This document shows, one piece after another, positions 21,537 through 37,873 of a stretch of 38,371 nucleotides of DNA. The stretch's first letter is position 1; every line of letters begins with the position of its first letter. A model generated the notes under the pieces. It was given only the letters and a program-made list of their open reading frames with translations. It ran no database searches and was not told the origin of the DNA. Origin of the DNA: a virus (Duplodnaviria; Heunggongvirae; Uroviricota; Caudoviricetes); IMG/VR virus record IMGVR_UViG_2563366865_000004, positions 1-38,371 of that record, one strand, 5' to 3'. A program made the translations under genes and the position numbers.

Positions 21537-21583
21537 GCTTATGCGAATAGTGTTGCTCATTTGCTCAATGATGTCAACACGTT

Positions 21584-22072
21584 CTACGCTACATGTTTAA
21601 TTTTCTCTACACGTTTCCGGTTTTTAAACGCACTATCCAGAACCGGGTAAATCATAAACAACGAGGCATTGAGGATTTCGTCAACTTCCCGACGACAGGT
21701 TGCGAGCGATGGTTTTTGAATGCGCCCGCCGCCCCGGCATAACATCTTGCGAGGTCTTGCGACGCGATGATAGTAAGATGCAATGGCGTGCTTGGAAGAG
21801 CCGTGGGCGTAGTAGCTGAGGAGGATGCCAAAGGCTTTCTTGTCAATGTACATGACGGAATCGACGACCTGAGAAATCAACATTCCATCATCATCATTAC
21901 ACATTGGCCTTGTCATAACTCTTCCCGGCTCTACGCTCTCCATGAATTTCGCTATTACGCTGCTCATGCGCTTTTCCAGGCGGCCTGAATAAACCCATGC
22001 GCCCCACAGTTCAAGCCAGCCATTCAGCCAATCGTGCTGTTCTTTGGTGAGGTTTAGTTCTCTTATGCTCAT
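21584..22072 (-). CDS. Late gene antiterminator Q, 162 aa
   Basis: Position immediately upstream of the late leader and lysis genes; sequence resembles Q proteins of the non-lambda (82/21-like) type. Confidence 0.8.
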   Translation of the reverse strand: MSIRELNLTKEQHDWLNGWLELWGAWVYSGRLEKRMSSVIAKFMESVEPGRVMTRPMCNDDDGMLISQVVDSVMYIDKKAFGILLSYYAHGSSKHAIASYYHRVARPRKMLCRGGGRIQKPSLATCRREVDEILNASLFMIYPVLDSAFKNRKRVEKIKHVA

Positions 22073-22257
22073 CGCCTTCCCTTTTTTCCTGGCGTTACCA
22101 TCAGGACGCCGTTAACTATTACGTGACGCTCGCCTTTGCTGTCTCGGTTGTACTTGAGCACTGTTCCTCTTGCGCAGGAAAGCATCCTCGCCACTTCGGT
22201 CTGATTGCCTCGTGTCTGGATAAGAAGCTCTGGTATCGTTTGAATTGTGGCGTTCAT
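22069..22257 (-). CDS. ninH: NinH-like protein, 62 aa
   Basis: TIPELLIQTRGNQTEVARMLSCARGTVLKY resembles lambda NinH. Confidence 0.8.
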   Translation of the reverse strand: MNATIQTIPELLIQTRGNQTEVARMLSCARGTVLKYNRDSKGERHVIVNGVLMVTPGKKGRR

Positions 22258-22616
22258 ACGTTCTCCAGTTCAGTGATTTTTATACCAAGCCGTCCGCCTG
22301 GTACTTTCACACCACGAATTACGCGAATGTCATCGAATTGCTCGTCGTCTTCCGCAAATCCGGCGTGGATAAGGGAATCGAGTAAACCTTTCAGGATGTT
22401 ATCGAGGTCGCGGCGGCGGGAGTCTGGAACGTCTGCGATGACTTTGATGCGGAGTCGTGATTTGGTGAAAATGTCTAACTTGAGTTGGCGGATGATTTGC
22501 TGAACGTCTTTTCGGTATTTCTGGCCTTTATCGCTGATGTAGTATTGGCTTCCCCGTCTTCGCCAGTAGGTGTTCACCGACGGCGGGTATGGAAGCACAA
22601 ACTGATATTCGTTCAT
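22254..22616 (-). CDS. rusA: RusA-type Holliday junction resolvase, 120 aa
   Basis: PPSVNTYWRRRG ... DSRRRDLDNILKGLLDSL motifs typical of RusA. Confidence 0.9.
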   Translation of the reverse strand: MNEYQFVLPYPPSVNTYWRRRGSQYYISDKGQKYRKDVQQIIRQLKLDIFTKSRLRIKVIADVPDSRRRDLDNILKGLLDSLIHAGFAEDDEQFDDIRVIRGVKVPGGRLGIKITELENV

Positions 22617-22903
22617 GGCTTAATCTTCCCCTCCTTCAGCAGTATCGCCTGCGTCCTGATCACACCTTCGAGGTGGTAAAGTCTGGCGTCTTTGTTGTCG
22701 AGATTATGGGTGCGTCGGTCGATTTCATCGTGACACGCGCTACAAGCCCATGCGCCAATCAGGTCGTCAGGTTTCATTCCCGTTCCGCAAATTCCAGCCA
22801 TCCGGTAATGTGCCAGAACTGTAGTTTCAGGATTGCCATTGCATACGCCGTAAATACGTACCTGGCATTCTCTGCCGCGCGCTTCTTTGCGTAGGTTAGC
22901 CAT
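22613..22903 (-). CDS. YbcO-like (DUF1364) nin-region protein, 96 aa
   Basis: ARGRECQVRIYGVCNGNPETTVLAHYRMAGICGTG ... CSACHDEIDRRTH resembles E. coli prophage YbcO. Confidence 0.75.
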   Translation of the reverse strand: MANLRKEARGRECQVRIYGVCNGNPETTVLAHYRMAGICGTGMKPDDLIGAWACSACHDEIDRRTHNLDNKDARLYHLEGVIRTQAILLKEGKIKP

Positions 22904-23172
22904 TATGGTTCACTCCAGTAATTCTCAATTGCAGCAGCCATTCTCTGCATCCACTCAGCCAGCTTTAACGCGGCTTCTCTTTCAGAACCACATTTAGGGA
23001 AATCCTTCATTTCCATGCTGGCCTTATATGTTCTGAATGCCAGGTCTCCGGTAATAACCAACTCCTGATCAAGCACCGAGCGTTTATTTCGGTGTTGAAC
23101 GTAATAGACAGATTCAGTCCGCATTTCTTCTCTGTCTTTTTTGAAGGAAATAAGCTCAGAGAAATCACTCAT
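22903..23172 (-). CDS. Hypothetical nin-region protein, 89 aa
   Basis: ORF in operon context; start overlaps upstream stop. Confidence 0.55.
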   Translation of the reverse strand: MSDFSELISFKKDREEMRTESVYYVQHRNKRSVLDQELVITGDLAFRTYKASMEMKDFPKCGSEREAALKLAEWMQRMAAAIENYWSEP

Positions 23173-23359
23173 CGTCTTCTTCCTCGAACATTGAGCTATT
23201 CGGATCGCTCATCAGTTCTGCGCAGCAGTGCTCACACATGTGAACTTCCAGCACATGCAGCTTCTGACCGCAGTTAGCGCACGTTAAAGCTCGCTCGACG
23301 CTTTCTTGTTCGTAACTTCGATTTGGGTCAATCACCTTGTTTTCCTCATGCGGTTCCAT
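23165..23359 (-). CDS. ninF: NinF-like protein, 64 aa from internal Met (supplied ORF extends to 23626)
   Basis: C-terminal ALTCANCGQKLHVLEVHMCEHCCAELMSDPNSSMFEEEDDE resembles lambda/P22 NinF; true start uncertain. Confidence 0.6.
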   Translation of the reverse strand: MEPHEENKVIDPNRSYEQESVERALTCANCGQKLHVLEVHMCEHCCAELMSDPNSSMFEEEDDE

Positions 23360-23474
23360 TTGGCCTGTAACAGCCCGTAGACATAATCGAATGTCTTTAC
23401 CTGGCTTTCTGTGGGGATTGGTTTCTTGCGGGATTTGGTGCGTTTGGTAGGAGTAAAAATCAGGTTGTCTAACG

Positions 23475-23645
23475 CTATTTGAGTAATGCTTCGTCGCTGT
23501 CTCGCCACACGTCCTCCTTTTCCTGCGGTAGTGGTAACACCCCTGTTGGTGTTCTTTCACACCGGAGACACCATCGATTCCAGTAAGGTTGATTTGGTCG
23601 GAAGCGGTTATCTTCTTTGCATTCACCGCACCGATAACATCGCAT
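23475..23645 (-). CDS. Small CxxC zinc-finger-like nin-region protein, 56 aa
   Basis: [15 protein letters not shown] ... [11 protein letters not shown] overlaps ninB stop (TGATG). Confidence 0.5.
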
Positions 23646-24073
23646 CATACTGCCCGATCTCCCCATCTCGCTTTCCACTCCAGAGCCAGTCGCGCTTCGT
23701 CTGACCACTTAACGCCACGTTCTGTACCGAATGCCTGTATAAGCTCTAATAACTCCGCAAATTCGCTTACACGCATCCTGCTGGTTGACTGGCCTATTAC
23801 CACAAAGCCATTCCCGGCAAGGTTAGGAACAACATCCTGCTGCTTTAATGCTGCGGTAAACACGCACTTCCAGCTTTCTGCATCCAGCCAGCGACCATGC
23901 CATTCAACCTGACGCGAAACGTCACCAAGGCAAGCCCAAAGCTTCCGATTTTGGTCTAAGCTGCGGTTGCGTTGCTTAAACTCGACAATGATGTCTAAAT
24001 CGCATGTCCTAAGGTACTGAATGGCGTTATATCTTATAGATTCATTGGTAAGGTGATATTTGACACATTTCAT
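23645..24073 (-). CDS. ninB: NinB (Orf-family recombination mediator), 142 aa, with a non-lambda N-terminal 28 residues
   Basis: From [37 protein letters not shown] to the end it matches lambda NinB as remembered; ATG one nt after the HNH stop with GAGGT RBS. Confidence 0.75.
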
Positions 24074-24074
24074 T

Positions 24075-24662
24075 TTAATACCTCGCAAATTCGCCGAAAC
24101 ATTCATCCGCTTTATTTGCATATACTTTATGAGCTTCCTTTGGGTCATCGTAAAACCCAAGATTAACTTTCCTCTTGTTGATTACGATTTGCGCCCTCCA
24201 TTTTCTTGATTTCTTATCCCATGAAACGCCTTTATATCCTGATTTGTTATTTGCCTTTTTGTTTACGTTTTGGATGTTTTGAGATCGAGTTGCCAATCTA
24301 AGGTTTGCTATACGATTGTCATCCCTAACGAGATTTATGTGGTCGATATCACTTTTTGGTAGACTGCCATTCATATAGAGCCACGCCAGCCTGTGTGCCT
24401 TATAAAGTTTTCCATCGACTTTTATTACCCAGTAGCCTTCGCTACTCTTATGCCCTGCGATATCCCCTGCATTCATTCTCTGGCATTTCTTTACTTTCCA
24501 TGTGAATTTCCCTGTTAACTCATCGTAGAGAAGGACTTCTTTTAGTCTCTGCTGAGTTATTTGATTGATTGGTTTGGTTGGGTCTGGAAGAATTTGCTGT
24601 ACTGCGTGAATAGCGTTTTGCTGATGTGCTGGAGATCGAATTTCAAAGGTTAGTTTTTTCAT
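24075..24662 (-). CDS. HNH homing endonuclease (HNH_3 plus AP2-like domain), 195 aa, carrying the first 32 codons of lambda-type ninB as an in-frame N-terminal fusion
   Basis: MKKLTFEIRSPAHQQNAIHAVQQILPDPTKPI (lambda NinB N-terminus) followed by GYWVIKVDGKLYKAHRLAWLYMNGSLPKSDIDHINLVRDDNRIANLRL and SGYKGVSWDKKSRKWRAQI. Confidence 0.8.
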   Translation of the reverse strand: MKKLTFEIRSPAHQQNAIHAVQQILPDPTKPINQITQQRLKEVLLYDELTGKFTWKVKKCQRMNAGDIAGHKSSEGYWVIKVDGKLYKAHRLAWLYMNGSLPKSDIDHINLVRDDNRIANLRLATRSQNIQNVNKKANNKSGYKGVSWDKKSRKWRAQIVINKRKVNLGFYDDPKEAHKVYANKADECFGEFARY

Positions 24663-24680
24663 GACTTCCCTCTCCCCCAA

Positions 24681-24710
24681 ATAAAAAGGCCTGCGATTAC
24701 CAGCAGGCCT
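24681..24710 (-). terminator. tR2-like rho-independent terminator between helicase and nin region
   Basis: Minus strand AGGCCTGC-TGGTAATC-GCAGGCCT followed by TTTTTAT; matches lambda tR2 as remembered. Confidence 0.8.
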
Positions 24711-24735
24711 GTTATTAGCTCAGTGATGTAGATGG

Positions 24736-27129
24736 TCATACGTCCGCCCCTTGTGCATATCGTCTGCCACGTGCAGCGGGTGCATTTGATGTTGTGCAAA
24801 TCTGTCTGGCTTCATCCTGGTCACATGCAACAAAGTGTCCGTTGCAGAACCGCTGGTAAACCGTACCAAGTGAGCCAAAACGGTTTTTCGTCACGATGAT
24901 TTCAGCAAATGGCGCGGCGCTACTGTTCTCGTCATATACCGCTTCCCGATAGAGCATGATGATTGAGTCTGCGTCCTGCTCAATGCTTCCTGAATCACGC
25001 AAATCTGCGTTTGTCGGGCGTTTGTTTGGTCGCTTCTCAACATCGCGCGAAAGCTGACTCAGGGAGATAACAGGCGTTTTCAGGTCTTTCGCCATCGCCT
25101 TAAGGCTTCCTGAGATGTGAGCAATTGCGAGGTCGTTGCGGTCTGCTTTCGGCTTCTCAATCAGGCCAAGATAATCCGCCATGATGAGTGACAGGTTTGG
25201 ATTTTCCTGTTTGTGCCGTTCTGCGATTGAGCGTATTTCTTCGACCGATAACCGCGAGGCATCGACTACCCATACATCCAAATCTGCAAGCTGACTCATG
25301 CCGTTAGCAACACGCGCCCAGCCTTCGTCATCCATCGATGCAGGATTTCGCAGTACGCTAACCGACATCCTCCCGGCGTTGGCAATGCTTCGCTCTGCAA
25401 TCTGCAATGCGCTCATTTCCATTGAGAAAATCAATACCCCGCGCCGGACGTCAGAACCAGGAATAACGCGGCTTGCAACGCCTTCGGCAATCTTCAGCGC
25501 CAGTTCCGTATTGTGCGTAACGATGTAATCCGTTGTCACATAGAGATGGCTAGGATGGCTTACCATGATGCAGAGACACTCTTCTGGCTCAACAACTTCA
25601 ACCGATTTGATACCCACACCAAGGTCGCCAAGCCTGTTAATCCCGAGATTTTTGCGTAAACGTGGTGAGTGAATTTGCTCTATCAAAGATGATGGCAACT
25701 TCATGCTGACCATGTGTGCATCAAGTCCGTCATGCTTCTCTCCTTTGTACGTGTAAACTATTCCCGTCCTGCTGGATTCTTTGGCGGTTCCACCTAAAGA
25801 TCTAACAAGCCTTACTAATCCTTTAGCTAATTTCTGACTGGATGAACTAAAGCGGATGCATCCGGACTTCTCAACCCAGCCATCTGTCTCGAGAAGGCCA
25901 GTTAAAACACCGGTACGTATTTCTTTGCTAGCACTAAAAATTTCTGCTGGGATTTCCTTCTCGGACGCACCTTTCCCGATCATCCCAATGCCACGTAGTT
26001 TGTCCAATAGTGGGTTCTTCTGGCCTTTTTGGTTGCTTATCAAATAATCATTCTCTCCTACCTTAACCAGTCGCAGTGGTGCAATTGCATCACTCATGCG
26101 GCTCAGGACATATTCTTCCGAGTTGGTGAATTTGATGCCTTTTATCAACGAACCGTCACCAAGTAGAGCCCCAATAACCCAACCATCAAGGGGAATATTT
26201 TTACCAAAGTCTCCGGTCAAGGATGGCACTCTTATTCTTCCCTGATAACGTGTTTTTTGTAGCATCCCAGCCAGCGCATCAGTATCAACAACGCGCTTAC
26301 CAGTAAATCTTGATGATGAAATTTCCCATAAGTGGTTGTCGGCACATTTCACGCTACGTCCGTCTTCAAAGGTGACTAAATATGTGAATTTCTTCCCTTG
26401 CGGGAAGACGCCAATTACCTCCGAAGGAAGCCCGTCTATTGACGCGATGCGATCGCCAATTTTGACTTCTCCGTGAGTAGTCCAGGTGCCATCTGCAAGT
26501 AAAATCCCTTCGCTTAGCGCCATTGCTTTCCCCATACCAGGACGAGCAGCGATAATCACCAGGTCTTCCGCGTTCATCCCTCCGGTGATGGCGTCAAGTT
26601 CTTCGATTCCGGTCTTCAGGGTATCTGACTCTTCTCCGTTCCTCAGACGCCTGTCAAGCGTGTCAGTGTAGTCAGTTATGATTTCCCCTAACCGTACAGG
26701 TTTAACCTCGTCACGGGGCTTTCTGATGGCTGAAAGACGTTTTACCAGTTCATCCATCGCCTGACTCGATGCGTCGATGGTTCCGCTCTGAATTGGTTCA
26801 CGCATTTCATCCATGATTTCCAGCACCAGACGGCGGTGATAGTTATCCGCGACCATTCCGGCATATCCCTTCAGGTTTGCGGCGCTCGGGCAGTTTTTGC
26901 TGGTCATCAGGATTGACGTGAAATGCTCCTCTCCGCACGCCTCGGCAACCATCAACGCGTCGATTAGGTTTCTGTTTCGCGCCTGCTTCCGGATAACTTC
27001 GAAGGCTTTCCGGTAGAGCGGAATTGAAAACGCTTCCGGCTCAAGCGTTGCCAGAACGTCACTGGCGGTTGGAGTTAATCCACCAATCAGCAGGCCACCG
27101 ATAACGCTCGCTTCGATATCCTGTCTCAT
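24736..27129 (-). CDS. DnaB-type replicative helicase (P22 gp12-like) precursor, 797 aa, interrupted by a 339-aa intein in the Walker A motif
   Basis: N-extein 201 aa ending AARPGMGK and C-extein 257 aa starting [10 protein letters not shown] rejoin to a canonical P-loop; exteins total 458 aa. Confidence 0.9.
25510..26526 (-). mobile_element. Intein (339 aa) with LAGLIDADG homing endonuclease domain; class-3-like features
   Basis: Starts [10 protein letters not shown] (Ala1), ends YIVTHN with +1 Thr; Trp in block B (ADNHLWEI), Cys in block F region (EECLCIM), Thr three residues from the C-terminus; LAGLIDADG-like [14 protein letters not shown] and [13 protein letters not shown]. Confidence 0.8.
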
Positions 27130-28073
27130 GCAATCCCCCTGTCTGCAAACTTCCCTTCCCGAACTCCCGTTAACGAGTCTTCCCTCAGCAGGTAATCAAA
27201 ATCAGCCGTCCAGCCCGTGTCGTTGTCTCCGAAGTAAAACGGCTTGGCCTGATGCACAAACGCCCTGACATACGCTCTGAAACCGTCCACATTTGGCGTT
27301 TTCAGTTGCGGGATGATTTTCTTCAGGCGGCGTTTGCGTTTCTCGTTGACCGCAACAGCGTGTGGCAGTCTGTCACCGACTTCGGTGTTGTAGGCGTTCA
27401 GGAAGGATTCGTAGTCGATTCGTTCTGCCTTGCGACGTTCAGGTTTAACCTGCCCATCGCCTCCCCCATTGGGGGGTAGGGGGGTATTATTTATATTCTT
27501 GTTAATACCTTCTTGTTCATGATGTGCGGTTGTTTGTGCGGCTTCATGTGCGCTTTCATGTGTGGCATGTACGCTGAAAGCCGCGCCATTACTGGCTTCA
27601 TCATGTGCGGCATCATGTGCGGTTGTTTGTGCGGCTTCATGTGCGGGTGAATTGTCCATTTTTTGAGCGTATTCATGGTAATTTGTGATGGTGATCACAC
27701 GCCCTTTTTGCTTCTCTCCATCAATGGAAATCATCCCCTCTTTCACAAAAACCTGAAGCATCCGCTCAACCTGATCACGGCTTGCTGGCTTGCCATGCCT
27801 GTCGCATAACTGAAGACCTAAATCAGCTGCTGTCACAACCAGTTGACCGGGTTGCAGATGCCATTCATGACCTTTGAAATTCGCTTTGTATGGCTTTCTG
27901 GCGGCATTCAGGAGAAGGTTTTCCCACAGGGTGCGAAGATAAACATCTTTCGCCCATGACTGTTTCAGAATGCTCCGGTACAACGGAATGTAACCAGTTT
28001 TCTGGTTCTCCATCCTGTTGCTCCTGCGCTCGTGTGCGGCGCTGAAATCGTAGATTTTTGCTGTATTGCTCAT
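27126..28073 (-). CDS. Replication initiator (lambda O / P22 gp18-like), 315 aa
   Basis: N-terminus [10 protein letters not shown] resembles lambda O; internal His/Ala-rich repeats encoded by the ori iterons; directly upstream of helicase. Confidence 0.8.
27517..27650. repeat. Candidate origin of replication: iteron-like direct repeats inside the initiator gene, with adjacent AT-rich stretch (27481-27512)
   Basis: Perfect 30-nt direct repeat TGTGCGGTTGTTTGTGCGGCTTCATGTGCG at 27523-27552 and 27617-27646; about seven copies of TGTGCGG. Confidence 0.55.
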
Positions 28074-28075
28074 AA

Positions 28076-28348
28076 CTACCTGCCTTGACGAAAGACCTTA
28101 AGAACATCGTTAAACTGACTTACGGATATGTCTTCTTTGAGAAGCTTTTCCAGAAATGCGTTTGGAATGAACGTATATCCCTCCTCTTTTGGTAGAGACG
28201 GGAGCAACGCCCTCGCCTCAGCCTTCAGAAACTCAGTTCTGGCAACTTTCACAAAAGAGATTTGAGTTCTTTCATCAATGGAACGAAGGAAGCGCAAACG
28301 CTTAGCTTCTTTGTGTGTATCAGGTGGATTAAAGCCTTTGTTTCGCAT
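28076..28348 (-). CDS. Hypothetical protein, 90 aa, inserted between cII and the initiator gene
   Basis: Internal Met with GAGGT RBS chosen; the longer supplied ORF would overlap cII in another frame. Confidence 0.5.
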   Translation of the reverse strand: MRNKGFNPPDTHKEAKRLRFLRSIDERTQISFVKVARTEFLKAEARALLPSLPKEEGYTFIPNAFLEKLLKEDISVSQFNDVLKVFRQGR

Positions 28349-28370
28349 ATAATTACCTCGTTGGATGTTG

Positions 28371-28664
28371 TTAAAATTCCATTTGTATTTGATCAGAACG
28401 CTCGGTTGCCGCCGGGCGTTTTTTATTGGTGAGAATCGAAGCAACTTGTCGTGCCAATCGAGCCATGTCGTCGTCGACGACACCCCATTCAAGAACAGCA
28501 AGCAGCATTGAGAACTTTGGAATCCAGTCCCTCTTCCACCTGCTGATCTGCGACTTATCAACTCCCACAGCTTCCGCTGTCTTCTCAGTTCCAAGCATTG
28601 CGATTTTGTTAAGCAACGCACTCTCGATTCGTAGAGCCTCGTTGCGTTTGTTTGCACGAACCAT
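28371..28664 (-). CDS. cII: CII transcriptional activator, 97 aa, lambda-type
   Basis: MVRANKRNEALRIESALLNKIAMLGTEKTAEAVGVDKSQISRWKRDWIPKFSMLL matches lambda CII; upstream TTGTTAAGGAAATACTTACATATG identical to lambda as remembered. Confidence 0.9.
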   Translation of the reverse strand: MVRANKRNEALRIESALLNKIAMLGTEKTAEAVGVDKSQISRWKRDWIPKFSMLLAVLEWGVVDDDMARLARQVASILTNKKRPAATERSDQIQMEF

Positions 28665-28723
28665 ATGTAAGTATTTCCTTAACAAATAAGAAGTTATGCG
28701 CATCAACTTATGCGCGTTGTATT

Positions 28724-28766
28724 CCCGCATTTCGGCGGGAATGAGGACCATGACTGTTAAAGAGCA
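28724..28766 (-). promoter_or_regulatory. nutR (boxA plus boxB)
   Basis: Minus strand boxA TGCTCTTTAACA then boxB hairpin CCCGCCGAAATGCGGG between cro and cII. Confidence 0.6.
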
Positions 28767-28772
28767 ATTTGC

Positions 28773-28958
28773 TTATGCCGCTTTGCGGTAAGCGCTTTCT
28801 TGATACTTCAGGGCGCCAGCTGTAACGACTTCCAGTCGATAGGCGTCTTTCTCTGGGATGACTTCCTTCCACTGAGAGACTGCTGCGTCGCTAATGCCTA
28901 ACGCTTTAGCTACAGCACGCTGGGTTCCGAAGTGGTCGATAACATCTTTCTTGTACAT
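28773..28958 (-). CDS. cro: Cro repressor, 61 aa, P22-type
   Basis: MYKKDVIDHFGTQRAVAKALGISDAAVSQWKEVIPEKDAYRLE matches P22 Cro as remembered. Confidence 0.9.
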   Translation of the reverse strand: MYKKDVIDHFGTQRAVAKALGISDAAVSQWKEVIPEKDAYRLEVVTAGALKYQESAYRKAA

Positions 28959-29038
28959 AGACTCGCTCCGAAATTAAAGAACACTTAAATTGTCCACTAA
29001 AGGAATCTTAAGTCAAGTTTATTTAAGATGTCTTAACT
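28959..29038. promoter_or_regulatory. OR operator / PR-PRM region
   Basis: Divergent cro and c2 starts; partial dyads containing TTAAG half-sites, e.g. ATTTAAGATGTCTTAACT abutting the c2 ATG (leaderless PRM transcript implied). Confidence 0.6.
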
Positions 29039-29689
29039 ATGAAAACTCAATTGATGGGAGAGCGCATTCGCGCTCGGAGAAAAGAACTCAAGATCAGGCA
29101 GGCCGCACTTGGAAAGATGGTCGGCGTGTCTAATGTTGCCATATCTCAGTGGGAACGCTCTGAGACAGAGCCAAATGGAGAGAATCTTCTCGCCCTGGCT
29201 AATGCGTTGAAGTGTTCCCCTGACTATCTGATGAAAGGAGAGGAAAGTCTTTCAAACATTGCCTATCACAGTAGGCATGATCCAAGAGGGTCATACCCTC
29301 TGATTAGCTGGGTGAGCGCAGGATGCTGGATGGAAGCTGTAGAACCATATCATAAGCGTGCAATAGATAACTGGTACGATACAACCGTAGACTGTTCAGA
29401 CGATTCGTTTTGGTTGGACGTGAAGGGAGACTCAATGACGGCTCCGGCCGGTCTCAGTATCCCTGAAGGAATGATAATACTCGTCGATCCTGAAGTAGAG
29501 CCGCGTAACGGGAAACTGGTAGTTGCAAAGCTCGAAGGAGAAAACGAGGCAACTTTCAAGAAGTTAGTTATTGATGCAGGCAGGAAGTTTCTAAAACCAC
29601 TTAACCCACAATATCCGATGATCGAGATCAACGGGAACTGCAAAATCATCGGCGTAGTTGTCGATGCAAAACTAGCAAACCTTCCATAA
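29039..29689 (+). CDS. c2: C2 repressor (LexA-like autocleaving CI-family), 216 aa, P22-type
   Basis: MKTQLMGERIRARRKELKIRQAALGKMVGVSNVAISQWERSETEPNGENLLAL and C-terminal peptidase domain match P22 C2. Confidence 0.95.
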   Translation: MKTQLMGERIRARRKELKIRQAALGKMVGVSNVAISQWERSETEPNGENLLALANALKCSPDYLMKGEESLSNIAYHSRHDPRGSYPLISWVSAGCWMEAVEPYHKRAIDNWYDTTVDCSDDSFWLDVKGDSMTAPAGLSIPEGMIILVDPEVEPRNGKLVVAKLEGENEATFKKLVIDAGRKFLKPLNPQYPMIEINGNCKIIGVVVDAKLANLP

Positions 29690-29712
29690 GGGGGCATTCG
29701 CCCCTTTTTTTA
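29688..29712 (+). terminator. Rho-independent terminator after c2
   Basis: GGGGC-ATTC-GCCCC followed by TTTTTTTT. Confidence 0.85.
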
Positions 29713-29853
29713 TTTCCTTTAAAAATCAAAGCCAAACTTAAGTTACGAAAGAAAATTTAAGTTTTCTTCAAAAATACTCTTGACCATTAATTAAAGAGAT
29801 CTTAAATTTAAGCCATCAGCAGGACGCTGGTAGCCAAACGGAACAGATTGGCA

Positions 29854-29894
29854 GGCTCTTTAACATTGATGGAATTGTCCCGCCGAAATGCGGG
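29854..29894 (+). promoter_or_regulatory. nutL (boxA plus boxB), downstream of the presumed PL/OL region (about 29720-29800)
   Basis: GGCTCTTTAACA then the same boxB hairpin CCCGCCGAAATGCGGG as nutR. Confidence 0.6.
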
Positions 29895-30037
29895 AACCAA
29901 AGAGTAGTTGGCTTTGGGATTGGATGAATGCGCAGGCTGATGCGCGCAGGAGAGCTTCGGGAGAACAAGGTGCCTGTAAATAAGCCGGAGTTCAGCACCG
30001 GCCATCCAATCGCCAAAGTCAATCATCGGAGGTCAAC

Positions 30038-30343
30038 ATGGCAGTAGTCATTACATATCTGGCTGACGATAACGCCAGAAATCGCCGCAGAGCACGCAGA
30101 CAGGCTCAACGTGAACAGGCAATGCAAGAGCAGCGACTGGCGCGAAAAATTGCGCTAAAGCTCTCTGGTTGCGTCAGAGCAGATAAAGCAGCATCACTCG
30201 GAAGCCTTCGCTGCAAGAAGGCAGAAGAAGTCGAGCGTAAACAGAACCGTATTTACTACCGCAAGCCACGCAGTGAAATGGGTGTGACTTGCTCAGGCCG
30301 CCAGAAACAACGCGGAAAATCAATTCCAGCTTATTACGATTGA
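30038..30343 (+). CDS. N-like antiterminator (P22 gp24-like), 101 aa
   Basis: N-terminal arginine-rich motif NARNRRRARRQAQREQ; first gene after nutL. Confidence 0.75.
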   Translation: MAVVITYLADDNARNRRRARRQAQREQAMQEQRLARKIALKLSGCVRADKAASLGSLRCKKAEEVERKQNRIYYRKPRSEMGVTCSGRQKQRGKSIPAYYD

Positions 30344-30351
30344 GGTGAGCC

Positions 30352-30489
30352 ATGCTCAAGAAAGTCAAACGCCGACTTTACAAAGAAGGTAGATATTCAT
30401 GCCATTTGCCAAAATGCGACACAGCAAAATGGAGTGTCGATGATTGGTGTAACTGGATAGATAGATACGGAACTTGGTGGGATAAATAA
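30352..30489 (+). CDS. Small Cys/His/Trp-rich hypothetical protein, 45 aa (not in ORF track)
   Basis: ATG preceded by GAGGTGAG RBS; translation MLKKVKRRLYKEGRYSCHLPKCDTAKWSVDDWCNWIDRYGTWWDK. Confidence 0.4.
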   Translation: MLKKVKRRLYKEGRYSCHLPKCDTAKWSVDDWCNWIDRYGTWWDK

Positions 30490-30543
30490 CAGGTAACTTA
30501 AGCGGATTTATTTTCGCAGCAAACCACTTATTTGAGGTGAGAT

Positions 30544-30807
30544 ATGGACGAGAAAATTAAATCATTGAAGCCAGGAATTGTTATCAGAGACATAAGTGGT
30601 TATTACGATACAGAGACATATGATATTTTATATGTGCATGCAGATGGAAAATGTCAGTATTCGAACGACATTTTTAATAATAAAGGCGATGCCGAAATTG
30701 CTGCCACCACAGTTAATAAAGAGCTCGTAGCTAACGAGTCGTGGGATTATTTTATGCCATCATCCACTTCTATGAACTGGAAAGTGGTTTTGTACATTCC
30801 ATCATAA
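30544..30807 (+). CDS. AT-rich hypothetical moron protein, 87 aa
   Basis: Strong GAGGTGAG RBS, markedly lower GC than neighbours, followed by its own terminator. Confidence 0.55.
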   Translation: MDEKIKSLKPGIVIRDISGYYDTETYDILYVHADGKCQYSNDIFNNKGDAEIAATTVNKELVANESWDYFMPSSTSMNWKVVLYIPS

Positions 30808-30848
30808 TTGTAGCTGCCGTTCAAAAATGAAAGTAAATCTAACATCAC

Positions 30849-30872
30849 AGGCCGCATAGTCGGCCTTCTTTT
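30849..30872 (+). terminator. Rho-independent terminator after the 87-aa moron
   Basis: AGGCCG-CATAGT-CGGCCT followed by TCTTTT. Confidence 0.6.
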
Positions 30873-30991
30873 GGCATAAACAACAGAATAAACACTGCAC
30901 TGTGTATTCATTCCAACGAGTGAATACACTGAGCAATGTCGCTCGTAACTAAACAGGAGCCGACTTGTTCTGATTATTGGAAATCTTCTTT

Positions 30992-31018
30992 GCCCTCCAG
31001 TGTGAGGGCAATTTTTTT
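30992..31018 (+). terminator. Rho-independent terminator (tL-like) preceding the coiled-coil gene
   Basis: GCCCTC-CAGTGT-GAGGGC followed by AATTTTTTT. Confidence 0.65.
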
Positions 31019-31030
31019 GATGGAGGATAT

Positions 31031-31999
31031 ATGAGTGAAGTAACAGATTTAGTTGTTATTGAAAAAGCAAATGCAATGACTGTATTTCAGTCTGCCGACC
31101 AGATTGAAGAAATCCTTCAAAAGGTTGAACGTGAAGTTATGTCCTTTGTGCCTGATATCACAACGGCAAAGGGCAGAAAGGAGATCGCTTCTCTGGCGTA
31201 TAAAGTTGCGCAGACGAAAACATATCTCGATGGTCTTGGCAAAGACCTTGTTGCTGAACTGAAGGAAATTCCAAAGCTAATTGATGCTAACCGCAAGACA
31301 GTGCGTGATCGCCTTGATGAGCTGAAAGCCAAGGCACGCCAGCCTCTTACTGATTATGAGGAAGAACAGGCGCGGATTAAAGCCGAAGAAGAAGCTAAGG
31401 CAGCAGCTGAAGCTCTCGCAAAGCAAATTGAGTCTGACCATGAAATAGCTATTTTGATGGATCGCGAATTTGACCGCCAAAGAGAAGAGGCAAGACTCAA
31501 AGCGGAGCAGGAAAAGCGAGAGCATGAAGAACGCTTAAAAAGAGAAGCTGAAGAGAAAGCCAGAGCAGAAGCCGAAGCAAAGGCAAAAGCCGAAATTGAA
31601 GCAGCAGCAAGGCGAGAAGCAGAAGCTAAGGCCGCAGCGGAACGTGCAGAGCGTGAACGCATTGAAGCCGAGCAACGAGCACTGCGCGAAGCAAAAGAGG
31701 CAGCAGAACGAGCTGAAAGAGAAAAGCAGGCGGCAATTGAAGCAGAACGCAGAAAAGCACAGGAGGAGGCTGAACGAATCCGGCGCGAGGCTGAAGCAAA
31801 AGAGCAAGCCAGAATAGCAGAAGAAAAAAGAATCAAGGACGAAGAAGAGCGTAGAGCAAAGGATAAAGCTCACCGAAAAGAAGTAAATAACAAAATACTT
31901 GCTGACCTTATCAAGGTTGGCGCATCAGAAGATGTTGCTAAAAATATCATAACAGCCATCGTAAAAGGCGAAGTATTCGCAACAAAAATAACCTACTAA
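31031..31999 (+). CDS. Highly charged coiled-coil protein with Glu/Ala/Lys/Arg-rich central repeats, 322 aa
   Basis: GGAGG RBS before ATG at 31031; residues about 120-290 low-complexity EAEAKAKAE / REAEEK type. Confidence 0.6.
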   Translation: MSEVTDLVVIEKANAMTVFQSADQIEEILQKVEREVMSFVPDITTAKGRKEIASLAYKVAQTKTYLDGLGKDLVAELKEIPKLIDANRKTVRDRLDELKAKARQPLTDYEEEQARIKAEEEAKAAAEALAKQIESDHEIAILMDREFDRQREEARLKAEQEKREHEERLKREAEEKARAEAEAKAKAEIEAAARREAEAKAAAERAERERIEAEQRALREAKEAAERAEREKQAAIEAERRKAQEEAERIRREAEAKEQARIAEEKRIKDEEERRAKDKAHRKEVNNKILADLIKVGASEDVAKNIITAIVKGEVFATKITY

Positions 32000-32022
32000 T
32001 AAAACCAACATAAGGAACCACC

Positions 32023-32154
32023 CATGATTTACGCAATCGCGGGAGGCGCTCGCATGGGTGCCTTCCAATTAAATGAATCTTTACTTGAACGAATCACCCG
32101 TAAATTACGTGACGGATGGAAAAGAGTTGAGGTCTTATTATGCGCAATGAAATA
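32023..32154 (+). CDS. cIII: CIII-like protein, 43 aa (not in ORF track)
   Basis: MIYAIAGGARMGAFQLNESLLERITRKLRDGWKR matches the lambda CIII core (ESLLERITRKLRDGWKR). Confidence 0.7.
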
Positions 32155-32292
32155 GCCATTAATCACCAGATGCTTCGTGCGGCACAAAACAAAGCAGTAA
32201 TAGCCAGATTTATTGGTGATTCAAAAATGTGGCTTGAAGCAAATAAAGCGATGAAATCAGCTATCAACCTTCCGTGGTATCGCAGGAAATGA
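32140..32292 (+). CDS. Kil-like small protein, 50 aa (not in ORF track)
   Basis: ARFIGDSKMWLEANKAM resembles lambda Kil ATFIGDEKMFREA segment as remembered; GAGGT RBS; overlaps cIII-like end. Confidence 0.5.
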   Translation: MRNEIAINHQMLRAAQNKAVIARFIGDSKMWLEANKAMKSAINLPWYRRK

Positions 32293-32373
32293 GTTTTACA
32301 GATAACTGGTCAGACGAAGAATTCATTCGTCAGATGAACAAAATGCTCAATCAGCACAAAGAACAGGAGAAAG

Positions 32374-32685
32374 ATGATGATTCTGACTCTGAATGATAAG
32401 CGTGAAATATCGCAAATAATCGCAAGTTTTACTGATGAAGATTACGAACGAATCAACAGTGAAGTTGATCGTCTCTGCAAACGTTGCGACCCAATAAGCG
32501 AAATGCTTCGCTCATATAAACCAGATGAACACACTAAGGACGCTATCGACTGGCTGGAAGATGATGACTGTAACTATCAGGAAAAAGCCGCTGAATGGTT
32601 CTGGGATGCAATAACCGAAAGAGTTAAGGCTGAATATGCCTTCGCAATATTTAAACGCAGACACATTTTTGGAGAAGCAGCATGA
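32374..32685 (+). CDS. Hypothetical acidic protein, 103 aa
   Basis: AGGAG RBS; stop overlaps recT start. Confidence 0.55.
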   Translation: MMILTLNDKREISQIIASFTDEDYERINSEVDRLCKRCDPISEMLRSYKPDEHTKDAIDWLEDDDCNYQEKAAEWFWDAITERVKAEYAFAIFKRRHIFGEAA

Positions 32686-33593
32686 GCAATATCGTTGAAT
32701 TCGTTAAACAGCAAGAGCAGTTATTCTGCGGAGCATTGACTGAACAGACGGTGACATGGGCTAAGGAAAGCCAGTTTGCAATTCAGTATTTCCAGAAAAA
32801 CGATTACCTGGCTAAAACAGCACTGGCAAATCCAACCAGCGCACAGAACGCCATCATCAATGTTGCGGCGATCGGCATCACCTTAAACCCTGCAAGCAAA
32901 CTGGCTTATCTGGTTCCGCGCGATGGCATGGTTTGCCTTGATATCAGCTATATGGGATTGCTCCATATTGCAATGGAGTCTGGTGTTATCTCATGGGGTC
33001 AGGCAAAACTTGTTCATGCTAACGATACCTATGAGTCAAACGGGCTTGATAAAGCACCAACCCATAAATACAACGCCTTCGGTGATCGTGGTGATATCGT
33101 TGGCGTTTACTGCACAGTTAAGACGCCGGCAGGTGATTATCTAACGGAAGAGATGAGTCTGGCTGAAATTGAGGCTGTAAGGAAAACAAGCAAGGCAGCA
33201 TTCAGCGATAAAGGACCATGGGTAAATCACTGGAATGAGATGGCGCGAAAGACGGTCGTAAAGCGTGCAAGCAAGTATTGGCCTAAGGCATCACGTCTTG
33301 ATAGTGCTATTCACGTACTAAACGAAGAAGAAGGTGTATGGACTGAACCAGTTATGCCGCACAAATCAGAGGAAGATATCCGCGAAGATGAACGGAAACG
33401 CCAGCAGGAAATAACGGATAAAGCACAACTTCTTTGTGATGAAATGGCTCAGGCAGAAAACATGGATGATTTGAAGCGATATTTTGCAGAAGCATATCGC
33501 CTGACATCTGGAATGAAATTGCAGCAGAACATACAAGCCATTTACATAGAATGCAAAGCGAAACTGGAGGTTGCCAGTGAGCAAACTGTATGA
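32682..33593 (+). CDS. recT: RecT-family single-strand annealing recombinase, 303 aa
   Basis: Central region AIINVAAIGITLNPASKLAYLVPRDG typical of RecT. Confidence 0.85.
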   Translation: MSNIVEFVKQQEQLFCGALTEQTVTWAKESQFAIQYFQKNDYLAKTALANPTSAQNAIINVAAIGITLNPASKLAYLVPRDGMVCLDISYMGLLHIAMESGVISWGQAKLVHANDTYESNGLDKAPTHKYNAFGDRGDIVGVYCTVKTPAGDYLTEEMSLAEIEAVRKTSKAAFSDKGPWVNHWNEMARKTVVKRASKYWPKASRLDSAIHVLNEEEGVWTEPVMPHKSEEDIREDERKRQQEITDKAQLLCDEMAQAENMDDLKRYFAEAYRLTSGMKLQQNIQAIYIECKAKLEVASEQTV

Positions 33594-34059
33594 AATAGCT
33601 AATGAATACGCAAAATTGATGGATTCAGATTTAGAACCAGAGATGATTGCTGACACAATAGAAGGCATGGAAGGAGAATTTACCGATAAAATAGAGCAAC
33701 TTCTTTCCGTCATTAAAAATGAATCTGGTTATGCTGAACGCCTCAAGGAAGAGGCAAAGTCGCTGAATGAGCGAGCCGCAGTAATTCAAAATAAGATTGA
33801 CAGCATCAAATCATATATAGCGTCATCGCTTGAAATGGTTGGCAAGAAAAAGATTCGAGCAGGTATTCACCAGGTAACAATCCGCAAACCGTCAGAAACT
33901 GTAGAAATCATCGACTCAAGCGCCCTTCCTCCTGAATACGTTGAGTTCGAAACGACAATTAAAGCCGACAAGTTGGCAATCAAGCACCAACTAAAAGCAG
34001 GAATAAATATCCCCGGCGCTCAACTCAAGGTTGGGAAACCTTCACTTCTTATCAAATAA
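33577..34059 (+). CDS. Recombination-module accessory protein (Gp157-like), 160 aa, GTG start
   Basis: GGAGG RBS 6 nt before GTG; position right after recT; family assignment from memory only. Confidence 0.5.
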   Translation: MSKLYEIANEYAKLMDSDLEPEMIADTIEGMEGEFTDKIEQLLSVIKNESGYAERLKEEAKSLNERAAVIQNKIDSIKSYIASSLEMVGKKKIRAGIHQVTIRKPSETVEIIDSSALPPEYVEFETTIKADKLAIKHQLKAGINIPGAQLKVGKPSLLIK

Positions 34060-34070
34060 CGGTATCGACT

Positions 34071-34385
34071 ATGAAAAAGACTCCATGGGAGAAATGGGAA
34101 GTCGATTTCTTGCGCGAAGTAGCGGCGACAATGCCAGTTCAAGTTATCGCTGAAAAACTGGAAAGGACTGAAAAAGCAGTAATGGCAAAAGCAACAAGGA
34201 TTGGCGCTGACATTGTTAGCCGACTTCGTGGAAGACGCTGGACAAGAGCCGAAGTATCACTTTTCGGTAAGTTCTCCGCAGAAGAAATAGCAATTGCAAC
34301 CTGCCGCTCAATTTATTCAGTAAGAGCTATGCGATACAAGCTAAAAAAACTCGATGAAGAAAGAGCAGGCATACGAATAAATTAA
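34071..34385 (+). CDS. Hypothetical protein, 104 aa
   Basis: ORF in early-left operon. Confidence 0.5.
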   Translation: MKKTPWEKWEVDFLREVAATMPVQVIAEKLERTEKAVMAKATRIGADIVSRLRGRRWTRAEVSLFGKFSAEEIAIATCRSIYSVRAMRYKLKKLDEERAGIRIN

Positions 34386-34401
34386 CATGGAGTAATTAAC
34401 A

Positions 34402-34683
34402 ATGAAGCTAAACATCGACCTCGGAAAATACGTTATTACCGGAACCAAACACGACCTGATTCTTAGTGAAAGAGGAATTATCAAAGAAGGCGAGAATGCA
34501 GGGAAAGAAACACTAAGTCGTATCGGTTATTACAGCAAGTTTGAGCATCTGGTTAAAGAGTTATGCAACCGTGAAATCCTGTTATCTCAGGCGCAGACGC
34601 TACAGGATATTCAGCAGCATATCGAAACTTTAGGTATGTCACTTAGCATGGCTATTGACCAGTTAGTGGAGAGTAAATCATGA
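34402..34683 (+). CDS. Hypothetical protein, 93 aa
   Basis: ORF in early-left operon. Confidence 0.5.
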
Positions 34684-34844
34684 GAGGACTTGCATACAAT
34701 CCCGGCATTCTTCCGGCAGAAATGATTATTCGCCAACGAGTAAAGCCAATGCCATCGAGAGAGGAATTGCTTAAGAGAAATTCTTTTCCTTCAGTAAATC
34801 AAAACAAATATCTGAATGCGATGTGGCGGAGTGGGAAGAAATGA
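34680..34844 (+). CDS. Small hypothetical protein, 54 aa (not in ORF track)
   Basis: ATGA overlaps at both ends suggesting translational coupling. Confidence 0.35.
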
Positions 34845-35416
34845 AACAAATGTCACTAATTGAGATGGATGGATTTCTGAAAGGTAAATGCATCCCACGA
34901 GATTTAAAGGTTAACGAAACAAACGCTGAATATCTGGTGCGTAAGTTCGGTGAGCTTGAATCAAAACTGGAAACGGCGTTGCGGGAGTGTCGTTCTGCTG
35001 GAATCACGATTGATAACCTTGAGGCCAAGTGCGCGGCGCTGGCAGCGGAGAGTGCGGGGCTAAAGGCGATATGTGATGACCGTCGCAGGTTCATCATGAA
35101 TGGGGTGCAGATGGGTTATATCAAGGTGCCAGCAGCGGAAACAGATCCAGACCTTGAGACAATTCGCATTGCTATATCACCACAAAAGCCCATTCCAGCC
35201 ACTGATGCTTTCCTGTCTGAAGTGCGGGCGCAGGGGGTGGATGCTGCTATAGAAGCTGCAAAAAATCTGGTGGTCCAAGAATATGAGTATAAGGATTTCA
35301 AAGCGGCGCAGAGTGATTGCTGTATGCACCCTGGTTCAGACCTGGTAGGGAAGGTTGAAATGACTGAGTGGTTAGTTGACTTTGCTGCCCAGCTTCGCAA
35401 AGGAGGCAACCAGTGA
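34841..35416 (+). CDS. Hypothetical protein, 191 aa
   Basis: ATG start chosen over the upstream GTG of the supplied ORF. Confidence 0.5.
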
Positions 35417-36072
35417 GCGAAATTAATTACCAGGCACTACGTGAGGCGGCAGAACGTGCAACTCCAGCAATGGAACGCCTGTTAATGTTGCCAGTTGATG
35501 ATGATCTGATAAGCGAACAGGAACTTAAAGATAGCGGTGTTGATATTGATGCCCTCAACGCCTTCAAATTTCTGGCCGGACCAGAAACCGTGCTGGCGCT
35601 ACTGGATGAACGGGAAAGAAACCAGCAATACATAAAACGCCGCGATCAGGAGAACGAGGATATTGCGCTAACGGTAGGGAAACTGCTAATCGAAAACGGC
35701 CGGCTTGTTGCCGATACGCTACGCCACTTAGCTGATAACGAAATCGACTCTGATTATTTTGCTATCACCTCAACGAATGAGAACGGTACTGAAATTGATC
35801 ATGAGATGGCTATTACCGATTACGCACTGCAAGCTGCCGGAACTGTAGACGAATTGGTTGCGGCGCTGGAATCCGCAGAGAAGCGCATAGCAGAACTGGA
35901 AGCGCGGGAAATACTGCTCCCGGAACGTAGCAGTATGCTTCATCGAACAGATTTTCACGATGATTACCAAACGGTAATGGCATACAAAGTTTCTGAAGTC
36001 ATCGCTGCAATCCGCGCCGCTGGCATTCGCATCAAAGGAGACGCAGGAGAACAAAACGATGAAAAACCGTAA
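35413..36072 (+). CDS. Ead/Ea22-like early protein, 219 aa
   Basis: N-terminus [18 protein letters not shown] resembles Ea22-like prophage proteins as remembered. Confidence 0.6.
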   Translation: MSEINYQALREAAERATPAMERLLMLPVDDDLISEQELKDSGVDIDALNAFKFLAGPETVLALLDERERNQQYIKRRDQENEDIALTVGKLLIENGRLVADTLRHLADNEIDSDYFAITSTNENGTEIDHEMAITDYALQAAGTVDELVAALESAEKRIAELEAREILLPERSSMLHRTDFHDDYQTVMAYKVSEVIAAIRAAGIRIKGDAGEQNDEKP

Positions 36073-36235
36073 AGCAAAATTACTTCTTTTATCGCGTTCG
36101 ACGGGGTACGAGAAGCTACCAATCAGCAATCACAAACGGGCGGTGATCGGCATGTTTGGTAGGGTGGTATTCGCATTTAACTATAAACCCACCGCGTCGC
36201 GGAACAGACGAGAGAAGGGGTACGCAGTGCGATGA
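36059..36235 (+). CDS. Small basic ORF, 58 aa, starting MKNRKAK (first of a tandem pair)
   Basis: ATG embedded in a 21-nt motif repeated at 36231; may be a recombination scar rather than a gene. Confidence 0.3.
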   Translation: MKNRKAKLLLLSRSTGYEKLPISNHKRAVIGMFGRVVFAFNYKPTASRNRREKGYAVR

Positions 36236-36423
36236 AAAACCGTAAGGCAAAGATGCTGATAGCAAAGCCGGGGCAGCGTATCCGTATCTCAAATCGGCTT
36301 GTTATTTACTATAGATATCTGGGTTTTAGGGGGTGTTCCTCTATTCGTTTTTACGGTGTCTGGCGAAACAGAAGCGCAGCACAAAACCGCTGGAAAAACC
36401 ACTTTCGCACTAAAGGAGAGTGA
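36232..36423 (+). CDS. Small basic ORF, 63 aa, starting MKNRKAK (second of the pair)
   Basis: Same start motif; ATGA overlap with preceding ORF. Confidence 0.3.
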   Translation: MKNRKAKMLIAKPGQRIRISNRLVIYYRYLGFRGCSSIRFYGVWRNRSAAQNRWKNHFRTKGE

Positions 36424-36424
36424 T

Positions 36425-37312: not shown

Positions 37313-37596
37313 TGGACTCCTTCGCGAAATATACGATTATTGACTGGATAGCATTCATTCAGGTTTTGCTCATCTGGTTTTATATGGCTTACAGGAGTGG
37401 GCAGTGGATTGTCAGTGTAGCCTGTAGCAATGGATGGCGTTGGTGGAACCGAAAGAATAAAAAAGCGCTGGCCTTGGCTTCGTTTTACGAAGCATTCAAT
37501 CTTAACAGTCTTCAGCCTGGTTCTGTCGTTGTAGTCACCACTCAAAGCGGCATGACGATACAAATTCACAAGCCAAAGGAGGAAGGTCGTGGCTAA
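37312..37596 (+). CDS. Small membrane protein, 94 aa
   Basis: GGAGGTGAAG RBS; hydrophobic segment IIDWIAFIQVLLIWFYMAY; TGATG overlap with upstream gene. Confidence 0.55.
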   Translation: MDSFAKYTIIDWIAFIQVLLIWFYMAYRSGQWIVSVACSNGWRWWNRKNKKALALASFYEAFNLNSLQPGSVVVVTTQSGMTIQIHKPKEEGRG

Positions 37597-37873
37597 CCTG
37601 CAACTTGCCGTTAAAGGTGAATACTTCGATGCCATGATTCGCGGAGAGAAAACGGAAGAGTATCGCCTGTGTAATGACTACTGGAATAAGCGAATTATGT
37701 TCCGCGAGTATGACCGCCTGATTATCACAAAGGGATATCCGAAGCGCGACGATTCCAGCCGTAGAATTGATGTTCCGTATGACGGATATGAAATCAAGAC
37801 AATCACACATCCGCACTTCGGCGATAAACCGGTAAAGGTGTTCGCGATAAAGGTGAATATCAGCAATGAATAA
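37589..37873 (+). CDS. Hypothetical protein, 94 aa
   Basis: ORF overlapping the previous stop. Confidence 0.55.
   Translation: MANLQLAVKGEYFDAMIRGEKTEEYRLCNDYWNKRIMFREYDRLIITKGYPKRDDSSRRIDVPYDGYEIKTITHPHFGDKPVKVFAIKVNISNE

Follow-up and report, generated by a model that had tools for sequence, protein, structure and literature searches.

A very probable class 3 intein with a LAGLIDADG homing endonuclease in the P-loop of a DnaB-type helicase of Escherichia coli prophages

Introduction

Class 3 inteins are defined by the absence of a nucleophile at position 1 together with a triplet of residues (the WCT triplet), i.e. Trp at block B position 12 (B12), Cys at block F position 4 (F4) and Thr at block G position 5 (G5), and the first residue after the intein (+1) is usually Thr or Ser (PMC2807308, PMC3196547). 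They have been described as phage-associated elements that favour the P-loops of ATPases, and those found in the P-loops of phage DnaB helicases are the archetype of the class (PMC2807308). Here we analyse an insert in the helicase gene of a 38,371-nt stretch of DNA of a tailed phage (Caudoviricetes; IMG/VR record IMGVR_UViG_2563366865_000004, positions 1 to 38,371), which as a whole is called the window below. We conclude that this insert, residues 202-540 of a 797-residue DnaB-type prophage helicase, is very probably a full-length class 3 intein that carries a LAGLIDADG homing endonuclease and lies in the P-loop of its host protein.

The closest experimentally studied counterparts of the insert include the class 3 DnaB inteins of mycobacteria, i.e. 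DnaBi1 of Mycobacterium smegmatis (PDB 6BS8), DnaB-1 of M. chimaera (6RIX) and the M. leprae DnaB intein, whose mechanism has been established by experiment (PMC6195587). DnaBi1 sits between the Lys and the Ser of the DnaB P-loop, and this Ser doubles as the +1 nucleophile (PMC6195587). Like the mycobacterial inteins, the insert described here has a DnaB host, interrupts Walker A between its Lys and its Ser/Thr, begins with Ala, and has His65 and Trp67 in the same numbering, a block F Cys, and a C-terminal T-H-N followed by Ser or Thr at +1. However, the mycobacterial inteins are mini-inteins that lack an endonuclease, whereas the insert retains a full LAGLIDADG domain, and they reside in the chromosomal dnaB rather than in an enterobacterial prophage helicase. 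Further differences from DnaBi1 lie at block B position 7 (Asp in DnaBi1, Ala here) and at the redox partner Cys48 of DnaBi1, which is replaced by Thr, while Cys61 and Cys317 are present here instead.

The founding member of class 3, the MP-Be DnaB intein of mycobacteriophage Bethlehem, is another close counterpart: its host is a phage DnaB-type helicase, it has 341 residues as against 339 here, and it combines a LAGLIDADG-type endonuclease with Trp67, Cys320, His328, Phe330, a terminal Asn and Thr+1, where the insert has Cys319, His327 and Tyr329 at the corresponding block F positions (PMC2807308). The spacing from the Cys to the His (+8) and to the aromatic residue (+10) is the same in both inteins (PMC2807308). 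In contrast, MP-Be starts with Pro1 and its N-extein ends in ...SQDQ, an insertion context that, judged by its published residues, is unlike the GMGK/T found here (a slash marks a splice junction throughout). In overall structure the best match is the yeast VMA1 intein PI-SceI. The two align in the endonuclease blocks C, D and E, where the pair of catalytic Asp residues and the Lys of block D have their counterparts; PI-SceI is, however, a class 1 intein (Cys1, Asp at F4) of 454 residues with an extra DNA-recognition region, and it shares only ~15% sequence identity with the insert.

In sequence, the closest relative outside this helicase is the class-3-type intein in the P protein of the Stx2 phages Min27, phi24B and F403-type phages, which is 51% identical over 338 aligned residues. 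The Min27/phi24B intein resembles the insert in having Ala1, the block F segment ECLCIMV and a P-loop GK/T site, and in its occurrence in lambdoid Stx phages of E. coli; it ends in YVATHN/T, as compared with YIVTHN/T here, and the Min27-type C-terminal junction reads ECLCIMVDHPRHLYVTRGYVATHN/TEV. Its host is different, i.e. a Toprim primase fused to a gp4-type helicase, whose exteins have no similarity to the DnaB-type extein detectable by BLASTP. In Min27 (EU311208) the P gene lies at 1858-4440 and the intein comprises P residues 372-713, at the Walker A site GHGK/T. SfV-type Shigella prophages have the same primase-helicase type of P intein. The phi24B intein has been mentioned in the literature (PMC3430580), and related Shigella prophage primase inteins are listed in InBase, a curated intein registry (PMC2807308).

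The insert is absent from otherwise collinear helicase genes

We compared the helicase gene with 50,697 phage records by megablast. The entire 2394-nt gene was present at ~98.6% identity in 51 records (49 named 'Stx2a-converting phage Stx2_*', together with TL-2011a and Stx2a 981509). Many other records matched only 58% of the query, in two pieces that totalled exactly 1377 nt; these included HK97, mEp213, HK544, HF4s and Stx2 phage 1717 at ~97% identity, and P22 and its relatives at ~84%. The only gap in an alignment with the P gene of HK97 measured exactly 1017 nt and lay between ...GGT AAA and ACC GAA..., and the boundary was unambiguous because the bases at its edges permit no shift. Outside the insert this intein-free allele is ~97% identical in DNA, and its empty site reads ...CCTGGTATGGGGAAAACCGAACTGGCGCTG...; the same empty site was found in mEp213, phage 1717, HF4s and P22 gp12. 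An alternative boundary that would place a Cys or Ser at position 1 was ruled out by the unambiguous edge of the DNA indel.

Removal of the insert leaves an extein of 458 residues, equal in length to HK97 P and P22 gp12, and 455 of these 458 residues match HK97 P (three differences). The insert lies exactly between the Lys and the Thr of GxxxxGKT, so that rejoining the exteins restores the Walker A motif. In the 797-residue open reading frame (ORF), Pfam recognised the DnaB N-terminal domain (9e-13) and DnaB_C (3.6e-71), the latter in two stretches that flank the insert, and the NCBIfam DnaB model covered the entire protein, with a score of 322 bits that is under its cutoff of 385.

The original prediction, which had been made from the letters of the sequence, placed an insert at residues 202-540 of a 797-residue ORF; with the translation checked, this maps exactly to positions 25510..26526 of the window. 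The restored GxxxxGKT P-loop and 458-residue extein that it foresaw were both borne out by the deletion and by the HK97 P alignment. It had also named homologues running continuously through residues 202-540 as the observation that would count against an intein. The intein-free genes of HK97, mEp213, phage 1717, HF4s and P22 instead skip exactly these residues; as the insert is absent from otherwise collinear homologues and its boundary is exact, the outcome of this comparison favours an intein.

Sequence and modelled structure point to a two-domain intein

Inside the insert, Pfam matched LAGLIDADG_3 (7e-6), Hom_end and, weakly, Hom_end_hint. A sequence search of the PDB with the entire insert found the gp41-1 intein, PI-SceI (5e-8, over the endonuclease blocks) and the DnaB mini-inteins 6rix, 6riy and 6bs8. 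When the splicing domain was searched without the endonuclease, it matched 6riz (gp41-1; 5e-11), 6rix (M. chimaera DnaB-1; 1e-7) and 6bs8 (M. smegmatis; 3.5e-7) along the full extent of the splicing domain, with HxW, the block F Cys and THN in register. We built an AlphaFold model of the insert on a family alignment of 24 sequences (alignment A1; relatives 27-65% identical), which gave a mean pLDDT of 95 and a pTM of 0.92. Foldseek comparison of this model with the PDB returned PI-SceI as the top match (E = 2e-18, TMq 0.74); next came the TliVMA and PhoVMA inteins and PI-PfuI. The HINT part of the model matched 6bs8 and 6rix, both class 3 DnaB mini-inteins (TMt 0.75-0.80), its endonuclease part matched I-DmoI and I-Tsp061I, and a Hedgehog HINT domain was also among the matches. 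The Pfam, PDB sequence and Foldseek matches are far beyond chance and, taken together, the sequence and structural matches indicate a two-domain intein, in which a HINT splicing domain is interrupted by a LAGLIDADG domain. With a catalytic Asp at the end of each LAGLIDADG helix and the Lys of block D in place (Table 1), the endonuclease domain looks functional. A group I intron or other structured RNA was considered as the source of the insert and rejected, as nothing reached the Rfam gathering threshold across the entire window.

Table 1. Positions in the window of the helicase gene, its exteins, the very probable intein and the motifs of the intein. Residue numbers are those of the intein unless stated otherwise; A1 is the 24-sequence family alignment.
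Feature	Position	Strand	Remarks
Helicase precursor ORF	24736..27129	(-)	797 aa + stop; DnaB-type, like HK97 P and P22 gp12; carries the insert
N-extein, precursor residues 1-201	26527..27129	(-)	Ends ...ARPGMGK, the opening part of Walker A; matches HK97 P at 585/603 nt
Very probable intein, 339 aa, precursor residues 202-540	25510..26526	(-)	HINT splicing domain split by LAGLIDADG homing-endonuclease domain
Block A	26488..26526	(-)	Starts AMALSEG...; residue 1 is Ala, no N-terminal nucleophile; cf. ALALDTP... of M. smegmatis DnaBi1 (PMC6195587)
Block B	26320..26361	(-)	His65 (B10) and Trp67 (B12) in NHLW; both invariant in A1
LAGLIDADG motif 1	26149..26190	(-)	Catalytic Asp124; G123-D124-G125 invariant in A1; aligns to PI-SceI
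Endonuclease block D, K190-E-I-P193	25948..25959	(-)	Corresponds to KNIP segment of PI-SceI; K190 and P193 invariant in A1
LAGLIDADG motif 2	25861..25899	(-)	Catalytic Asp215 (T-D215-G); D215 and G216 invariant in A1; Pfam LAGLIDADG_3 7e-6
Block F	25537..25581	(-)	E-C317-L-C319-I-M-V-S-H-P-S-H327-L-Y329; Cys319 (F4) is the predicted initiating nucleophile
Block G and Thr+1	25507..25530	(-)	DYIVTHN; Thr337 (G5), His338, Asn339, then Thr541 of the precursor
C-extein, precursor residues 541-797 + stop	24736..25509	(-)	First residue is Thr+1, i.e. the Thr of Walker A; encoded by ACG at 25507-25509

The splicing blocks have the signature of class 3

In alignment A1 the residues C319, I320, T337, H338 and N339 are at least 90% conserved. 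Block-by-block reading of at least 20 relatives gave the same pattern of HxW in block B, xCI in block F and THN followed by Thr or Ser, which nearly all of the relatives inspected retain. In HMMER alignments the counterpart of Cys319 is the catalytic Cys in both M. smegmatis DnaBi1 (6bs8; vrCVEVDNPeHLY) and M. chimaera DnaB-1 (6rix). Cys319 also pairs with the engineered D107C of 6riz, and Trp67 pairs with the F65W of the same structure, which is the C1A/F65W/D107C variant of gp41-1 and so has Trp and Cys at the class 3 positions. The complete triplet aligns to Trp67, Cys118 and Thr137 of the crystallised class 3 intein DnaBi1 (PMC6195587). Using tblastn, we also found that gene 206 of mycobacteriophage Rizal matches over the full length (28% identity, 1e-23). 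Rizal is a relative of phage Catera, whose gp206 intein is reportedly a validated class 3 intein.

Judged by its sequence, the insert thus has every feature by which class 3 is defined. The further elements of the original prediction hold up equally well. Ala1, the ...VTHN end and Thr+1 are all present, with the boundary between intein and extein now fixed by the DNA indel; the Trp-Cys-Thr signature (NHLW, EECLC and Thr337) is invariant or at least 90% conserved in the 24-member alignment; both of the LAGLIDADG motifs that it read were found, with Asp124, Asp215 and the block D Lys; and alignment with known DnaB P-loop inteins, which it had proposed as a check, agrees residue for residue with the mycobacterial class 3 DnaB inteins. 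The call of an intein is likewise upheld by the HINT fold, the LAGLIDADG domain and the exact indel relative to intein-free alleles.

How the element would work is suggested by its homology to two inteins, MP-Be DnaB and DnaBi1 of M. smegmatis. The unspliced precursor would be dead as an ATPase because its P-loop is split. The thiol of Cys319 would attack the Lys201-Ala202 bond, with the assistance of His65 and Trp67, to form a thioester branched intermediate; we infer this block F thioester chemistry for Cys319 from the homologous inteins. The N-extein would then be transferred to the hydroxyl of Thr+1, giving a block G branched intermediate, from which cyclisation of Asn339 would release the intein. 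A final O-to-N acyl shift would create the Lys-Thr peptide bond and hence a 458-residue helicase with an intact GMGKT motif, nearly identical to HK97 P. With Asp124 and Asp215 as its catalytic residues, the endonuclease is predicted to cleave helicase alleles that lack the intein, around GGTATGGGGAAA/ACCGAACTGGCG, and repair off the intein-bearing copy would spread the element. Both the splicing chemistry and the endonuclease activity of this intein are predictions.

Remoter relatives (27-44% identical) occupy P-loop GK/T sites in DnaB, PhoH, IstB-like and RecA-like ATPases, as well as sites outside P-loops, i.e. a second PhoH site (MRGR/T), a CHAP/NlpC hydrolase and a methyltransferase. Proteins with SNF2 and UvrD-type Pfam domains are further hosts in the match table. 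A tblastn search of the phage collection found members of the family in 592 records, of which 296 are mycobacteriophages, and the PHROG matches agree. The host genes in these phage records are annotated as helicases, terminase large subunits and Rizal gene 206. This distribution among phages and P-loop ATPases agrees with the published view of class 3 inteins outlined above. One relative, the stand-alone protein P0030 from Paraburkholderia (368 residues), is annotated 'LAGLIDADG family homing endonuclease' and has Ala in place of the block F Cys and Arg-Gly in place of the terminal His-Asn; from its sequence it looks like a degenerate, non-splicing derivative.

Distribution and diversity in E. 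coli

We used 5,426 complete E. coli genomes as a population sample. The helicase gene was present in 707 of these genomes, at 760 places, and the full intein in 24, all of them chromosomal copies and all at least 99.4% identical; ~3% of the helicase copies are therefore occupied. The intein-bearing loci lie in differing prophage backgrounds, with O-like genes of 822, 888 or 948 nt and with immunity genes, nin regions and downstream genes that vary. The 797-residue frame is intact in all six uninterrupted intein-bearing alleles; a seventh (ET734) is interrupted by an IS66 element. In six pig-derived genomes only the last 52 nt of the intein remain, 100% identical to it. This sequence (positions 3001-3052 in Res13-Lact-ER02-39) lies in a degraded prophage, beside a 'DNA transfer protein' gene that is truncated, and is a deletion remnant.

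Diversity was estimated from six intein-bearing and four intein-free alleles. Among the six, nucleotide diversity was 0.0054 in the intein, as compared with 0.0255 in the N-extein and 0.018-0.019 in the C-extein. The exteins of intein-bearing alleles diverged from those of intein-free ones by 0.024-0.027, which did not exceed the diversity within the intein-free group (0.025). Thirteen sites within the intein varied among the six alleles, ten of them synonymously and three with conservative replacements (M/V, I/V and V/L). The Thr+1 codon is ACG in all seven intein-bearing alleles and ACC in all five empty ones, and its third base is the sole fixed difference between the two groups. This linkage could reflect a short tract of co-conversion from the intein donor or a change in the target site of the endonuclease. 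The overall pattern fits that expected for a young mobile element under purifying selection which entered, or recombined among, helicase alleles that already existed.

Some points weigh against the reading of a mobile class 3 intein. The diversity sample is small; recombination among mosaic prophages could yield part of the population pattern without active homing; and the prophage in the window might itself be defective. In addition, block B position 7 is Ala and not Thr, Ser or Asp, a position at which the residue is dispensable in class 3 inteins (PMC2807308).

Alternative explanations

The intein might splice actively and yet persist by vertical descent and mosaic lambdoid recombination, its endonuclease no longer homing, perhaps being kept as a conditional-splicing switch that acts on phage replication. 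Low occupancy speaks for this, as do the heavy recombination of lambdoid prophages, seen here in the variable O-like and downstream genes, and the precedent of M. smegmatis DnaBi1, which is a redox sensor (PMC6195587); the intein here has Cys61 and Cys317-x-Cys319 near the active site. However, the entire endonuclease fold is intact, along with the Lys of block D and the two catalytic Asp residues, the polymorphisms in the endonuclease part are mostly synonymous, and the difference between ACG and ACC at Thr+1 resembles a co-conversion mark linked to the donor. We therefore regard loss of homing as unlikely, while allowing it a real chance.

The cysteines themselves also recur elsewhere in the family: Cys61 (26344-26346), Cys317 (25576-25578) and Cys319 (25570-25572) are found in many members as 'CC.EHLW' and 'ECxCI'. 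Speculatively, they might make up a redox or metal site close to the active centre. Reversible blocking of splicing by oxidants or zinc has been shown for a mycobacterial class 3 DnaB P-loop intein. By analogy, the intein could conceivably act as a conditional-splicing switch on prophage replication, in which Cys319, with Cys317 and Cys61, would be reversibly blocked by oxidants or zinc, but we consider such a role distinctly improbable. If it did operate, helicase maturation would hinge on host redox state, and in the Stx2a phages of O121:H19, O157:H7 and O103:H25 strains replication and, by inference, toxin gene dosage would be redox-dependent too.

A different route to splicing is offered by class 2 (KlbA-like) inteins, in which the N-terminal junction would be attacked directly by Thr+1, while the block F Cys would not serve as a nucleophile. 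Ala1, as in the KlbA inteins, and the Thr nucleophile at +1 are compatible with that route. The complete WCT triplet, however, is present and conserved across the family; it co-varies with loss of the N-terminal nucleophile in all such inteins except KlbA (PMC2807308), and the nearest solved relatives are DnaB P-loop inteins that are class 3 by experiment (PMC6195587). A class 2 mechanism is therefore very unlikely for what we take to be a class 3 intein.

Annotation of the gene in public records raises the question of whether the element is decaying. GenBank submitters label the gene 'DNA helicase' or 'hypothetical protein', and in five E. coli chromosomes RefSeq PGAP divides the helicase (1898-4291 of the locus) into an 'incomplete' N-terminal pseudogene and one or two C-terminal coding-sequence or pseudogene fragments that start inside the intein. 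These flags, the truncation of the ET734 copy by IS66 and the six genomes that hold only the 52-nt remnant could be taken to mean that the intein no longer splices, that the helicase is dead and that the prophage is replication-defective. However, the split is a systematic mis-annotation of an intact 797-residue ORF, i.e. an annotation artefact in view of the frame being open in six of six uninterrupted alleles. All catalytic residues are retained, substitutions are mostly synonymous, the same allele occurs in the 51 phage records, nearly all of them Stx2a-converting, and the truly degenerate relative P0030 looks different at the block F Cys and terminal His-Asn that are kept here. Decay is thus highly improbable. 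It is scarcely conceivable that the insert is instead a permanent domain of the mature helicase, as it splits the Walker A GK/T and would abolish ATP binding, combines a HINT fold with a complete set of splicing residues, and is missing from alleles that are otherwise 97% identical in DNA.

Status and significance of the element

In the records examined for this helicase no intein annotation was seen. Our literature search found no published description of an intein in it, the InBase and Tori et al. lists lying outside that search, so that earlier cataloguing is possible. A paper on Stx-phage replication regions that defines the 458-residue DnaB-type 'Eru2B' helicase makes no mention of inteins. 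The literature search likewise gave no paper on whether Stx2a phages of O121:H19 are inducible. The element is of a known kind, i.e. a well-described class 3 intein that is biologically ordinary and opens no new question, and it is a fresh example in this helicase. Its description documents a native, apparently intact class 3 intein with an endonuclease in E. coli prophages; Stx2a-converting phages of O121, O157:H7 and O103:H25 strains, for instance, have it in their replication module. The description also explains a recurrent annotation error that may wrongly suggest that such prophages cannot replicate. The combination of nearly identical empty alleles (HK97 P), a homologous intein in the unrelated Min27/phi24B helicase and a genetically easy host makes this a tractable system, convenient for the study of class 3 splicing, phage-to-phage homing and possible conditional splicing.

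The surrounding prophage and a split ninB gene

The window (1..38371) is a mosaic P22-like or lambdoid E. coli prophage, and the genomes that match it have named portal, terminase and RecT genes. At most 69% of its right-hand 25 kb is covered in one place by any complete E. coli genome in the collection. An O-like replication gene at 27126..28073 overlaps the start of the helicase gene by 4 nt.

On the other side of the helicase, the ninB region (23645..24680, minus strand) has a low-GC insert of its own (GC content 0.36-0.41) of ~587 nt, at about 23980..24566. It encodes a homing-type endonuclease with HNH_3 and AP2 domains (Pfam 1e-16 and 1e-6; phrog_99 5e-75), fused in frame to NinB codons 1-32. 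Directly past the stop codon of the endonuclease (TAAAATG), a new ATG opens a divergent NinB N-terminus joined to the remaining NinB, and the cassette seems to supply a substitute 5' end for the gene that it splits. Rfam gave no group I intron here, either across the window at the gathering threshold or in 23500-24850 at E<=1, where one chance-level CRISPR-repeat match was returned. This ninB arrangement is present in only 8 of the 5,426 E. coli genomes, as compared with ~1240 genomes that match only the flanking ninB sequence.

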